Source: Candidatus Altiarchaeota archaeon
Lineage (GTDB): Archaea; Altiarchaeota; Altiarchaeia; IMC4; SCGC-AAA252-I15
Assembly: GCA_043800705.1 (NCBI GenBank)
Contig: JAZDMS010000023.1
Span: 1-64,000 of the forward strand
Length of the DNA stretch: 64,000 nt
Direction: 5' to 3'
Shown here: positions 33,097 to 36,228 of the stretch, piece after piece
How positions within the stretch are numbered: position 1 is the first letter of the stretch
How the letters are laid out: each line of letters starts with the position of its first letter
The notes under the pieces: generated by a model
Told to the model about the DNA's origin: nothing
Seen by the model: the letters and a program-made list of their open reading frames with translations, nothing else
Databases searched by the model: none
Translations under genes and position numbers: made by a program

Positions 33097-34005
33097 TCAC
33101 CTCATCTTTTTTCTTATGTCATCCAGCTGGTCCGTCATCTTCCTGAGGTACGGGGCCTGGACATACGACCTCAACAGAACGGAAACCATCTCCTGCACCC
33201 TCTCCGGATCCTCGACGCCGAAGAGTCCATACATGCTCCTGATCCTCGGGATCTGGACGGCCCTGCCGCCCGTCACCTGAGCGCTGAGGGGGATCCCTGC
33301 GACACTGCCCTGCGACCCCATCGAGACAGAGGAGAAGTCGCTGCCCATCCCGAGGCCGGACGCCGTCACCGGTATGATCGTCCCGAAATTGAAGAGGCTG
33401 CCGATGAGGCCCTGTTCGAGGACGACGTTGTTTATCTTGTCATACGACAGCTCGTTGCGTTTGACGCCTCCGAACCTGACCTCGGTCACTATCCTCTGGT
33501 CGGTTATGTAAAATATGTGGCTTCTGCGGTATGCGTCGACGACCCCGAAGCCCACCAGCGACAAGAGCATCCCGAAGTTGTATGCGCTTTCGGCGGGCAT
33601 GCGCCAGTATGCGCTGAGGCCGACGCTCGCGAGGCCGACGCCAGCCATAAACCAGACCCACTTGAACTCGATCCTCACGACCGAGACGGCCACGGAGCTC
33701 AGCAAAAGCGCCGCGATCCAGGCCGCGACCGGAGTGTACGTCCTGGTGAACCATTCCCCCCAATTAGCGGCGTCGGATACGGGCCTGAGGAATCCCGGCA
33801 GGATGGAGCCCACATGCCGGACGGTCCCCGCCGCCGCAACCAGCGGCCCGCCGGCGATATATTCGAACTCCTGGCCGTACATCAGGAATGCGAAGCTGAG
33901 GACGATCACCCAGACCCAGGCGGCGTACATGTCCCAGAATGAGAGGGGATGGGGTCTGGCCTCCAAAAGGAGCTTCTCGCCGTCGGACAATTTCAGCAGA
34001 CCCAT
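33097..34005 (-). CDS. Membrane protein with bacterial PH (bPH_2-like) domain
   Basis: GEKLLLEARPH, TM helices, and FYITDQRI...YDKINNV..EQGLIGSLFNFGTI. Confidence 0.8.
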   Translation of the reverse strand: MGLLKLSDGEKLLLEARPHPLSFWDMYAAWVWVIVLSFAFLMYGQEFEYIAGGPLVAAAGTVRHVGSILPGFLRPVSDAANWGEWFTRTYTPVAAWIAALLLSSVAVSVVRIEFKWVWFMAGVGLASVGLSAYWRMPAESAYNFGMLLSLVGFGVVDAYRRSHIFYITDQRIVTEVRFGGVKRNELSYDKINNVVLEQGLIGSLFNFGTIIPVTASGLGMGSDFSSVSMGSQGSVAGIPLSAQVTGGRAVQIPRIRSMYGLFGVEDPERVQEMVSVLLRSYVQAPYLRKMTDQLDDIRKKMR

Positions 34006-34046
34006 CAATATATTTTAGTCGTCTGGAAAGATAAAAGCGGCCTAGT

Positions 34047-34131
34047 GTTTGCAGTCTTCGGTCCTCTGTCCCCGGTCTTCGGTCTTGTTATTCTTGGCGT
34101 GGCTGAGGACAGTAGACCAGAGACTGCAGAC
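34047..34131. repeat. Imperfect inverted repeat built from 7-nt periodic units
   Basis: GTC triplets at 34054, 61, 68, 75 and 82; GAC triplets ending at 34110, 17, 24 and 31; outer arms GTTTGCAGTCT / AGACTGCAGAC. Confidence 0.7.
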
Positions 34132-34137
34132 TTCAGT

Positions 34138-34200
34138 TCATCAGCACTCATAAGCCTCATCATCGCCTTTCGGCTCAGCCATCTTGAGTCATCACGTGAT
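34138..34200 (-). ncRNA. Box C/D guide sRNA, probable guide for Cm34 of a CAU-anticodon (pre-)tRNA
   Basis: Minus strand: aTCAc-GTGATGA(C)-CTCAAGATGG-CTGA(D')-GCCGAAAGGC-g-ATGATGA(C')-GGCTTATGAGTG-CTGA(D)-TGA. All four boxes are consensus and both K-turns have canonical geometry. Confidence 0.88.
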
Positions 34201-34227
34201 CTATTGTTTGACGAGGCGGTTATATGC

Positions 34228-34418
34228 ATAAGGGCAAGACACCCTTCGGGTTTCTCGCCCTTATCAACCCTACTCTTCCGACATGCCATCGCGGATGGCA
34301 TCGTTCACTAATGTGTTTTTCTATTGTTTGACGAGGCGGTTATATGCATAGGGGCAGGCACCTTTCAGGTTCCCGCCCCTATCACCCCTACCCTCCGGTA
34401 TGGTGCCTTCGGCACCAT
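34228..34418 (-). ncRNA. Two tandem structured units (short hairpin - purine-rich linker - long hairpin), putative ncRNAs or ssDNA elements
   Basis: Long hairpins at 34228-64 and 34348-82, short hairpins at 34283-301 and 34400-18; the sequences differ but pairing is preserved. Confidence 0.6.
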
Positions 34419-34419
34419 G

Positions 34420-34425
34420 AAAAAA
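34420..34425 (-). terminator. Oligo-T tract after a stem-loop, possible archaeal terminator
   Basis: Minus-strand T6 immediately after the stem formed by 34459-68 and 34427-36. Confidence 0.4.
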
Positions 34426-34469
34426 TCCCGTAGACGTATGCATCGGCAGAAGGACAGGCGCCCTCGGGT

Positions 34470-34871
34470 TCATTGTTTGACGAGGCGGTTATATGCGTGC
34501 AGGACGAGGACGGCCTCTTCGAGTTGGGCGATGTTTACGGTCGTCGTCTTCTGTTCTATCGCCGGCTCAAGGAGCCTGTGCTGGACGCGGAACGGGCTCG
34601 TGCCGTCCTTGATCGTGTTCAGATTGTGGGTGCTGGTGATCTGGTTCAGCCTGTCCTTCGGCGCCTTCTGGAGGTATTGGACTGCCTCCTGTAGGTTGAT
34701 GAGGTGCTGGAGCATCTCCTCCTCGCCGCCGAATGCGGTCGCCAGCTCAAGCTGCGAGTTTGTGGTCAGCCTCCTGAGCTTCATCGAGACCAGCAGGTCC
34801 TGGAACGCAATCAATGTGTCCTTCACCGAGCATTCGGCCTCTTTTCGAGGCTTGGGTTTTCCCTCATCCAT
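34470..34871 (-). CDS. Hypothetical helical protein (133 aa) whose last codons contain the 25-bp repeat
   Basis: ORF starts 10 bp after the PMM/PGM stop and ends AYNRLVKQ*. Confidence 0.65.
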   Translation of the reverse strand: MDEGKPKPRKEAECSVKDTLIAFQDLLVSMKLRRLTTNSQLELATAFGGEEEMLQHLINLQEAVQYLQKAPKDRLNQITSTHNLNTIKDGTSPFRVQHRLLEPAIEQKTTTVNIAQLEEAVLVLHAYNRLVKQ

Positions 34872-34881
34872 AATGCACCCC

Positions 34882-36228
34882 TCAGATCTTACCCTTCAAT
34901 TCCGGATTCCTGTCGAAGACTTCCCTGAATACGGCCTTCATCTCCTCCAGTTTCTTCGGGGTCTTCCCCTCGAAGCGCAGCACCAGGTGAGGGCCCGTGT
35001 TCGAAGCCCTCATCAGGCCCCATCCGTCCTTTGCCTGGACCCTGACCCCGTCCACGGTAATCAGCTCGTATTTTCCTTCGAACGCCTTCCTGACCTCGTC
35101 GACGAGGGCGAACTTCTTCTCCTCGGGGACCGTGGCCCTTATCTCAGGAGTCGAATAATATTTCGGGATGGTGTCGACTATCTCGCTCATCCTCTTTTTG
35201 GTCTTCGACAGCGTCTGGACCATCCTCGCGGTCGCATATATGCCGTCGTCGAATCCTGGGTAGTCGTCTGCGAAGAAGAAGTGGCCGCTCATCTCGCCAG
35301 CCAGGAAGGCGTGTTCCTCCTTGATCTTCTTCTTGATGAAGCTGTGGCCTGTGCGGTACATTATCGGCCTGCCGCCGTGGGCTTCTATGTCCTCCGTGAG
35401 CGCCATGCTGCACTTGACTTCGAAGATAATGGATGCGCCCTTGTTTTTCGCGAGTATTTCCCTGCTGAAGAGTGCTAGGGCCTGGTCTCCGCGGATTATC
35501 CCGCCGTTTTCGTCGACGAAGCCGGCCCTGTCGGAGTCGCCGTCGTATGCGAGGCCTATGTCGGCCTTTTCTTCCTTTACCTTCGCTATCAGGTCTTTGA
35601 GGTTGGAGTCGACCGTCGGGTCCGCGGGGTGGTTCGGGAAGTTTCCGTCAGGCTCGGAGAAGAGCTCTATGACTTCGCATCCAAGGTCGCGGAAGAGCTT
35701 CGGCGCGACAGCGCCCGCCGTCCCGTTGGCGCAGTCGAGCACGACCTTCAGCTTCCTTTTGAGTTTTATCCTGTCACTCATGTATTTGGAGTATTCCGGG
35801 AGTATGTCGCGCGCTTCGATGCTGCCCTGTCCGCTCCTGAATTTGCCCGCGTCGACTGCGGCGCCTACGGCGGTTATCTCGTCCCCGTACAGGGTCATTC
35901 CGCCTTTAATGCAGAGCTTGAATCCGTTGTATTCCGGCGGGTTGTGGGATGCGGTAAGCATGATTCCGCCGTCGAGTTTCAGGATGTAGATCGCGAAGTA
36001 CAGTGCGGGGGTCGGGACGCACCCGACGTCTATGACCTTCAGCCCCGTGGATTTCAACCCCTCTATCAGCGCCTTTGACAGCGTCGGGCTGCTTTTTCTG
36101 ACATCGCATCCGACTGCGACGGTGCCTGTGACCGTGGAGCCGAATGCCTTGCCTATCTTTAGGGCGATCTCCTCGGTGACCTCCGTGCCGTATAATCCTC
36201 TGATGTCGTAGGCACGGTAGATGCTCAT
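34882..36228 (-). CDS. Phosphomannomutase/phosphoglucomutase
   Basis: RAYDIRG, TASHNP, DGDSDR and GEMSGH motifs. Confidence 0.95.
   Translation of the reverse strand: MSIYRAYDIRGLYGTEVTEEIALKIGKAFGSTVTGTVAVGCDVRKSSPTLSKALIEGLKSTGLKVIDVGCVPTPALYFAIYILKLDGGIMLTASHNPPEYNGFKLCIKGGMTLYGDEITAVGAAVDAGKFRSGQGSIEARDILPEYSKYMSDRIKLKRKLKVVLDCANGTAGAVAPKLFRDLGCEVIELFSEPDGNFPNHPADPTVDSNLKDLIAKVKEEKADIGLAYDGDSDRAGFVDENGGIIRGDQALALFSREILAKNKGASIIFEVKCSMALTEDIEAHGGRPIMYRTGHSFIKKKIKEEHAFLAGEMSGHFFFADDYPGFDDGIYATARMVQTLSKTKKRMSEIVDTIPKYYSTPEIRATVPEEKKFALVDEVRKAFEGKYELITVDGVRVQAKDGWGLMRASNTGPHLVLRFEGKTPKKLEEMKAVFREVFDRNPELKGKI

Follow-up and report, generated by a model that had tools for sequence, protein, structure and literature searches.

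The described systems that come closest to the element reported here are, on the one hand, MITEs (miniature inverted-repeat transposable elements), repetitive extragenic palindromes (REPs) with their REP-associated tyrosine transposases (RAYTs) and palindrome-associated transposable elements (PATEs) and, on the other, archaeal tRNA introns spliced from a bulge-helix-bulge (BHB) fold. The idea that BHB introns are or were mobile is said to come from tRNA intron transposition in Thermoproteales. Sugahara 2012 (PMC3293823) bears on the mobility of archaeal tRNA introns and on an integrase-type element model, and an Asgard preprint treats the way in which such introns arrive as an open question (10.64898/2026.10.13.758758). 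A 2018 study takes incomplete tRNA sets in DPANN and Asgard genomes as pointing to unidentified disrupted tRNA genes (PMC5829648), and a 2024 census finds MITEs to be densest, among archaea, in Ca. Altiarchaeum hamiconexum and a Woesearchaeon (PMC11602168). Here we describe a hairpin element that is present twice in 64,000 nucleotides of a Candidatus Altiarchaeota archaeon (assembly GCA_043800705.1, contig JAZDMS010000023.1, positions 1 to 64,000; the whole stretch is called the window, and its genome G000). The two copies lie between a 133-amino-acid orphan open reading frame (ORF) and a C/D box small RNA (sRNA). We consider it likely that they are two independent insertions of a small non-coding, non-autonomous mobile element at this junction, with duplication of the target. 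All genomes compared are metagenome-assembled genomes (MAGs).

A 25-nt repeat marks the array. It occurs three times without a mismatch, at 34203-34227, 34323-34347 and 34472-34496 in plus-strand coordinates, the copies being spaced by 120 and 149 nt. The window holds no copy with one to three mismatches and 100 shuffles gave none; the repeat is found nowhere else in the 2,003,634 bases and 43 contigs of G000 (reversed-pattern control, 0), and metagenome contigs searched with it gave no match. Between copies 2 and 3 the likeness extends over 37 nt (97%), with 28 nt in common if 34320-34322 is counted. On the minus strand the ORF end with its repeat comes first, then the 124-nt unit 1, a second repeat, the 95-nt unit 2, a third repeat and the C/D sRNA. 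The ORF occupies 34470..34871 and its last 25 nt are repeat copy 1 (34472..34496), which holds the ORF 3' end together with a TATA-like box and would be the left copy of the duplicated target. Unit 1 (34348..34471; 64.4 bits with the covariance model R1 described below) is made of a variable part of 53 nt with a run of six T (34419-34471), hairpin B (34400-34418), a linker (34383-34399) and hairpin A (34348-34382) with the stem variant ATAGGGGC/GCCCCTAT. After repeat copy 2 (34323..34347), unit 2 (34228..34322; 66.7 bits) repeats this plan with a variable part of 20 nt (34303-34322), hairpin B (34284-34302), a linker (34265-34283) and hairpin A (34228-34264), and is followed by repeat copy 3 (34203..34227), all on the minus strand. 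An earlier reading of this DNA, made from the letters without database searches (the sequence-only reading), had already seen the threefold repeat at the orphan gene's 3' end and the minus-strand order, both of which hold; its lengths of 50 and 19 nt for the variable parts are replaced by those given here.

The two units align across hairpin B, the purine-rich linker and hairpin A, and neither contains an ORF of note. Their minimum-energy folds, which contain both hairpins, reach -57.6 kcal/mol for unit 1 (z -3.24) and -36.9 kcal/mol for unit 2 (z -5.45), values matched by 0 of 200 shuffles in either case. Hairpin A differs between the units by compensatory changes and keeps a G-U pair, an A/G mismatch and a GAA loop, just as the sequence-only reading had it.

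BLAST of the unit cores against the genome returned copies of linker and hairpin A on five other contigs, and the covariance model R1 was built from these copies. R1 detects nine forward-strand copies in G000 (two each on contigs C14 and C39, one each on C19, C22, C29, C36 and C37), and its scan of the genome showed no further diverged ones. The features in common are the purine-rich linker, the sequence GGGTTG and a hairpin with the stem ATAAGGGC/GCCCTTAT and a variable top. Unit 2 fits this pattern exactly; unit 1 departs from it by one compensatory change from A-T to G-C and by GGGGTG in place of GGGTTG. The seven copies outside the array lie beside tRNA genes or in a glutaredoxin-like gene, and at each readable locus the sequence that directly follows the hairpin 3' end is also present upstream of the element. 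The sequence duplicated in this way is the 3' part of tRNA-Ile on C22, a tRNA-Leu end and trailer on C19, a tRNA-Leu 3' fragment on C29, the part of an intron-bearing tRNA that runs from T-loop to trailer, in a tandem array, on C39 and about 60 nt of the glutaredoxin-like gene on C37, a gene that is uninterrupted in the same-genus genomes G001, G003 and G004. Aligned over 63 columns, unit 2 reaches 90% identity with the C22 copy beside tRNA-Ile and 61% with unit 1, whose own nearest copies are those on C29 (71%) and C37 (69%). Each unit being closer to copies elsewhere than to its neighbor, the two arrived separately, in agreement with the earlier claim that the array is more than a decaying local duplication.

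Relatives that have the sRNA without units in front of it indicate what the target was. The C/D sRNA (34139..34197, minus strand), which we read as native to the locus, aligns to the Rfam family sR41 with 30.5 bits (E 3.5e-5), below the gathering score of 54; the alignment shows boxes C, D', C' and D, and these boxes and the guide GCTTATGAG are conserved in six relatives (G003, G016, G006, G005, G015 and G014). All six have this sRNA upstream of the membrane-protein gene that also follows it in the window, none of the six has hairpin units there, and in each an A/T-rich box precedes the C box by about 20-23 nt. In G016 the order is a homologue of the orphan ORF, directly the sRNA and then the membrane-protein gene; in the five others the sRNA directly follows a phosphoglucomutase gene. 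Archaeal TATA boxes lie about 25 nt ahead of the start site, and in the window repeat copy 3 has a TATA-like ATATAA at 34225-34220, about 23 nt before the C box, and is read as the working promoter of the sRNA. Since the relatives have the sRNA without the units and with an equally spaced A/T-rich box, the repeat is the native junction, and it is best read as a duplicated target that comprises the last 25 nt of the ORF and doubles as the core promoter of the sRNA. The TGA stop of the ORF is made at the joint between repeat and unit 1, where the native sequence reads TAG. The 133-aa ORF belongs to no Pfam family, and two of the 40 relatives searched have a homologue (G001, 39% identity; G016, 26%). 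At a neighboring site in G006 (L172, contig C9), between the C/D sRNA and the membrane-protein gene, we saw a fragment in which a left module is joined by a hairpin B (GCCATC..GATGG) that resembles the one in unit 2, without hairpin A; it may be a decayed or partial element.

In the reading that we prefer, each insertion would have joined the conserved right end (linker, GGGTTG and hairpin A) to the same target point and duplicated the 25-28 nt downstream of it. The ORF keeps its 3' end and the sRNA its promoter because both lie within the duplicated stretch. A trans-acting factor that recognizes hairpin A could make the first break and joint at a defined target point; the second joint would fall at a variable distance (4-60 nt), and gap filling or strand-displacement copying would duplicate the stretch between. 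Only insertions that leave one intact gene copy would survive. Inside a tRNA T-loop and in the opposite orientation, a short duplication would suffice since the element can be spliced out; outside this spliceable setting, the element would survive only where the duplication reaches the end of the gene. One precise end, one ragged end, variable duplications and the lack of coding sequence would together point to copying primed at the target; were no reverse transcriptase involved, either the template would have to be DNA or an unrecognized polymerase would be at work.

In the family as a whole the right, hairpin end is precise and conserved and abuts the target: at least 45 of 48 distinct copies in the order have GGGTTG, and the stem ATAAGGGC/GCCCTTAT hardly varies among them. 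Of 133 archaeal instances, 57 show a direct repeat, 17-60 nt in length, whose start is no more than a few bases from the hairpin end, and in many instances the variable part is a mere copy of the target. Insertion favors the beginning of the tRNA T-loop (GTTCRAA); of 47 reconstructed targets, 18 have the joint immediately 5' of this sequence, and most of the others start with G and a pyrimidine. A called tRNA lies within 300 nt in 56 of 136 instances, in 35 of them upstream on the same strand. We also noted that right-hand copies of T-loop targets are often altered at their first bases, from GTTCGAATC to GTGGGAATC, GTGAGAATC or a form shorter by 2 nt, or from GCTTAG to GCGGGG or GCGCGG, the remainder of the copy being identical; the altered bases could be either part of the element end or the result of selection against a second T-arm. 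Two loci, L095 in a Woesearchaeota MAG and L107 in G039, are minimal arrays in which a 26-27-nt hairpin alternates with target copies of 21 or 48 nt, and in L095 the 5' end of a tRNA gene follows the array without a gap. The smallest unit able to move may be the hairpin by itself.

That the hairpin is under selection, as had been proposed from the two units, is borne out by the wider set. In 37 copies of the long type, 94.9% of the pair cells are standard pairs, as against 41-60% with slid partners, and changes on both sides are found at 5 of 14 pairs (26 cells). None of 500 shuffles reached the observed values, a comparison that overstates the significance of the covariation because the copies are related. 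Columns 32 and 54 pair as G-U in 24 of the 37 copies and an A/G mismatch recurs, which identifies the folding strand in the order as the minus strand of the window. Over all instances, the hairpin top pairs down to a loop of 3-6 nt in 45 of 81 distinct sequences and in 1173 of 4050 shuffles.

The search for further units that had been suggested with the two-unit comparison extended well beyond G000. Within the order, the covariance model matches 22 of 49 genomes, with a maximum of 33 matches in G039, and an exact pattern of 12 and 8 fixed bases around a gap of 5-35 nt matches 14 of 49 (reversed control, 0). Three of the four same-genus genomes (G001, G002 and G004) have no match to the model. 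Many copies are close to contig ends (within 300 nt). In a collection of species-representative genomes at least 117 stretches match the exact pattern, and of the 80 matches listed 68 are archaeal MAGs, counted by eye from their titles, and the other 12 are bacterial. The archaeal labels among them are Woesearchaeota, Aenigmarchaeota, Altiarchaeota, Micrarchaeota, Nanoarchaeia, uncultured Methanosarcinales and Thermoplasmata; the bacterial matches have no GG flank and are terminator-like. By our own arithmetic about 30 matches are expected by chance in 596 billion bases, so chance probably accounts for the bacterial matches but not for the archaeal excess.

MAGs of other phyla carry the element within tRNA genes and in the opposite orientation. 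Read in the tRNA sense, the order is T-stem, TTCRAA, hairpin A, CAACCC, a second hairpin, YGAR-AAT, the 3' strand of the T-stem and the 3' strand of the acceptor. A strict test (loop start TTCR, T-stem 5/5 and acceptor 7/7 paired across the insert) picks out 10 of 136 instances and, in the control orientation, 1 of 136; one of the ten (L143) looks spurious. A generic test of acceptor and T-stem pairing was uninformative (34/136 in the test orientation, 41/136 in the control), and ARAGORN accepted many false solutions on computationally spliced candidates. The clearest case is G049, an Aenigmarchaeota genome of about 1.0 Mb that holds one of the instances (L116). R1 finds nine copies in it, and all nine lie inside tRNA T-loops in the tRNA sense; by eye, each insert is followed by the T-stem 3' strand, the acceptor 3' strand, one base and CCA, and the complementary acceptor 5' strand is visible in eight of the nine. 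The Rfam tRNA model, which at its gathering score misses genes interrupted in the T-loop, gives just four matches in G049, two of them over threshold, so that almost every tRNA gene in it must be interrupted or otherwise atypical. Across the family instances, U54-R57 can form three or four of the four pairs of a 4-nt helix with the 3' end of the insert in nine cases. Read by eye, the T-stem, this 4-bp helix, two bulges of about 3 nt and hairpin A would make up a BHB-like fold, from which an insert of 46-57 nt would be released at about position 59/60. The copies in the window lie between genes; they interrupt none and are not introns.

A wider reading, which we put forward only tentatively and hold to be well short of an even chance, takes the array and these inserts together. 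The element would be a pan-archaeal, protein-less mobile hairpin that homes to the palindromic TTCGAA of T-loops; inserted in one orientation it would become a BHB-spliced intron (about 59/60), in the other one, or at non-tRNA sites like that of the window, it would persist only with its target duplicated, and it would be moved by an unrecognized, probably host-encoded enzyme that reads hairpin A.

Several results weigh against insertion of a mobile element as the origin of the array. The enzyme is the first. Profiles for RVT_1 (PF00078), TnpB (PF07282), the Y1 transposase (PF01797) and Cas1 found nothing in G000, which is 87.6% complete; control genomes gave matches in the Y1 and TnpB searches. 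RVT_1 is likewise absent from all five other element-rich genomes (carriers 81-93% complete). The one XerA-like tyrosine recombinase of G000, on contig C17, stands beside no copy, and in the 2.5 kb around the 133 instances no protein family shows enrichment; all-against-all clustering of the ORFs there brought up only genes of ribosomal and RNA-polymerase operons. The second is the element itself, whose left end has no defined terminus (the left repeat ends anywhere from 0 to about 230 nt away from the hairpin) and which lacks a long direct repeat in 76 of 133 instances. Third, presence and absence within one species was not seen at the window site, and the empty sites belong to other species, which are 26-53% identical at the protein level. 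Finally, the two copies of the glutaredoxin-like gene on C37 diverge sharply past about 60 nt and the left one still encodes a similar C-terminus, a situation better explained by import of a filled allele from a relative than by simple fill-in duplication.

The rival that survives best, although we hold it to be unlikely, is that the array is the footprint of site-specific integrative elements such as a virus or plasmid, with the repeats as attachment sites, hairpin A as an end and the body lost by imprecise excision. Duplicated 3' ends of tRNA and other genes are the classic integrase-type signature, and such ends are duplicated here; the tandem arrays at a single site and the diverged replacement gene end on C37 would fit as well. 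However, at least seven different targets in one genome share one conserved end, none of the 133 copies has a coding body or a nearby integrase, G000 has a single tyrosine recombinase, and the repeats common to 12 loci of G039 do not exceed 141 nt, which leaves no long element body. In G023 two outward-facing copies flank a pair of tRNA genes, with no transposase-like ORF between them. The hairpin pattern has no match in viral contigs, and unit 2 has none in phages and just a 24-nt chance match in a Vibrio plasmid. A dif/Xer site was considered and dropped, as targets differ among loci; attC was dropped for want of an integrase and CRISPR-like acquisition (clusters of regularly interspaced short palindromic repeats) for want of Cas1.

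It is also quite improbable that the units are functional sRNA cassettes, each behind one of three working promoters and perhaps acting with the orphan protein, which had been one of the two options of the sequence-only reading in the form of guide-RNA-like cassettes. Every repeat copy has the correctly spaced TATA-like box of the sRNA promoter, so minus-strand transcription of the units is possible and they may well be transcribed, and the scaffold folds well and covaries on that strand. Yet the other seven copies in G000 have different flanks and no promoter repeat, and no hairpin array is present at the loci of the orphan's homologues in G001 and G016, where the option had looked for similar arrays. 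A T-run should stop archaeal transcription, and the six-T run of unit 1 lies 8 nt before hairpin B. The variable parts, which had been proposed for matching against the genome, give only chance matches of 11-15 nt, and in many instances such a part is the target copy described above.

Local tandem duplication of a unit and its flank by slippage or unequal crossing-over, after which the copies diverged while their hairpins were retained for termination or protein binding, appears very improbable. The head-to-tail layout and the near-identical period of some arrays elsewhere (74 nt on contig C12 of G039) speak for it. Against it, the repeats are 100% identical and the units 61%, each nearer to a copy elsewhere, and duplicated targets are found at single-unit loci too; the comparison of unit identities brings this explanation close to refuted.

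An assembly artefact from collapsed or chimeric repeats is hardly credible, for although several copies lie at contig ends (C36, C39 and C29), the 25-28-nt repeats are shorter than a read, the units differ throughout and the architecture recurs in many independent assemblies. Two DNA read runs hold 4% of the sampled words and yielded only short contig pieces; none of these pieces spans the window array, and one is a copy like unit 2 with a flank that reads as a tRNA-Ile 3' end.

Insertion of a mobile element being the reading that we retain, the closest described systems can now be compared with it. With MITEs, REPs and PATEs the element has in common that it is short, non-coding and dispersed, with strong hairpins and GNA-type loops, that it is patchy among relatives and sometimes tandem, and that it breaks assemblies. 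It differs from all of these in having only one conserved end. Unlike in classical MITEs, none of the five inverted-repeat pairs in 33500-35500 joins the ends of a unit, the duplications are not of a fixed few bases (17-60 nt in the family, 25 and 28 nt in the window), and 20 fixed pattern bases (12 + 8) recur exactly in MAGs labelled as several phyla. Unlike in REP/RAYT systems and IS200/IS605-derived PATEs, no Y1 (HUH) transposase or TnpB is present in G000 and the target is duplicated. The second option of the sequence-only reading, hairpin elements that insert at and duplicate this site, thus stands as far as insertion and duplication go, given the dispersed copies, the duplicated targets and the empty sites in relatives; a strict REP, MITE or IS200 type does not, there being no terminal inverted repeats, no duplication of fixed length and no Y1 transposase. 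Archaeal BHB tRNA introns resemble the nine G049 copies in the T-loops and their BHB-like fold; the window copies differ in lying outside genes, and the same sequence has long target duplications elsewhere. SINE-like retroposons (short interspersed nuclear elements) share a defined end with a terminal hairpin, a variable other end, variable duplications and the lack of coding sequence, but none of the six carrier genomes searched has a reverse transcriptase and the element has no A-rich tail. Integrative elements of tRNA genes and integron cassettes share duplicated gene 3' ends, tandem arrays and a folded hairpin at the boundary, but here no integrase lies beside the arrays, there is no cargo and one end is joined to many targets. 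A CRISPR array differs in that Cas1 is lacking here, the "spacers" share a scaffold and the repeat is a gene end. The element behaves as a non-autonomous mobile element and differs from MITEs, REP/RAYT systems, PATEs, integron cassettes, CRISPR arrays and retroposons on the tests that define them.

As had been said from the sequence, no described family could be recognized. At the gathering score Rfam has no family in the whole window; at E up to 10 it gives only sub-threshold C/D families and chance matches in 33900-34600, and at six other loci of G000 tRNAs alone passed. Literature searched by sequence string and keyword holds no description of the element, which the MITE lists in the supplements of PMC11602168 may nevertheless contain, and none of an intron sequence conserved across phyla. 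What is described here is one element in three settings, as an insert in T-loops, behind tRNA genes with duplicated ends, and at sites in protein genes and an sRNA promoter. It offers a concrete and searchable candidate for a mobile intron, with a hairpin that can be used as bait for the moving enzyme. Annotation is affected too: such elements interrupt assemblies, conceal tRNA genes and give rise to repeats that look like promoters or gene ends, the repeat of the window among them. If the mobile tRNA-intron reading were true, it would give a living source of archaeal tRNA introns and duplicated tRNA fragments, and also of the undetectable tRNA genes of DPANN archaea.

Some minor observations were made around these loci. 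In the window, a long imperfect inverted repeat lies downstream of the C/D sRNA (34050-34133, plus strand), for which Rfam gave only chance matches to miRNA families. Array units on two other contigs of G000 (C39:8000-8647 and C29:31400-31760) have larger predicted multi-stem structures that end in CATAACGCAT and a run of A or T, without a match in Rfam; hammerhead-like cores in the C39 units were considered and dropped, as Rfam has no match to them. A second recurring module consists of a T-rich/A-rich hairpin (TTTCTTT..AAAGAAA) followed by ACG-NNNN-CG-AAAAAGAA. It was seen in G000 at C22:58861-58940, C29:31620-31760 and in the C39 tRNA insert, as well as at L014, L016 and L031, and its sites are after tRNA 3' ends, to the left of many elements and in anticodon-loop inserts of tRNA genes (G000 and G023). 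A full-length element may have this module as its left part. Finally, C39:7900-8100 (L008 975-1098) holds a tRNA gene whose anticodon loop carries an insert of 53 nt and which scores 56.8 bits with the Rfam tRNA model and is missed by ARAGORN. Since ARAGORN calls just 21 tRNAs in the 2.0 Mb of G000, other disrupted tRNA genes may be hidden there.

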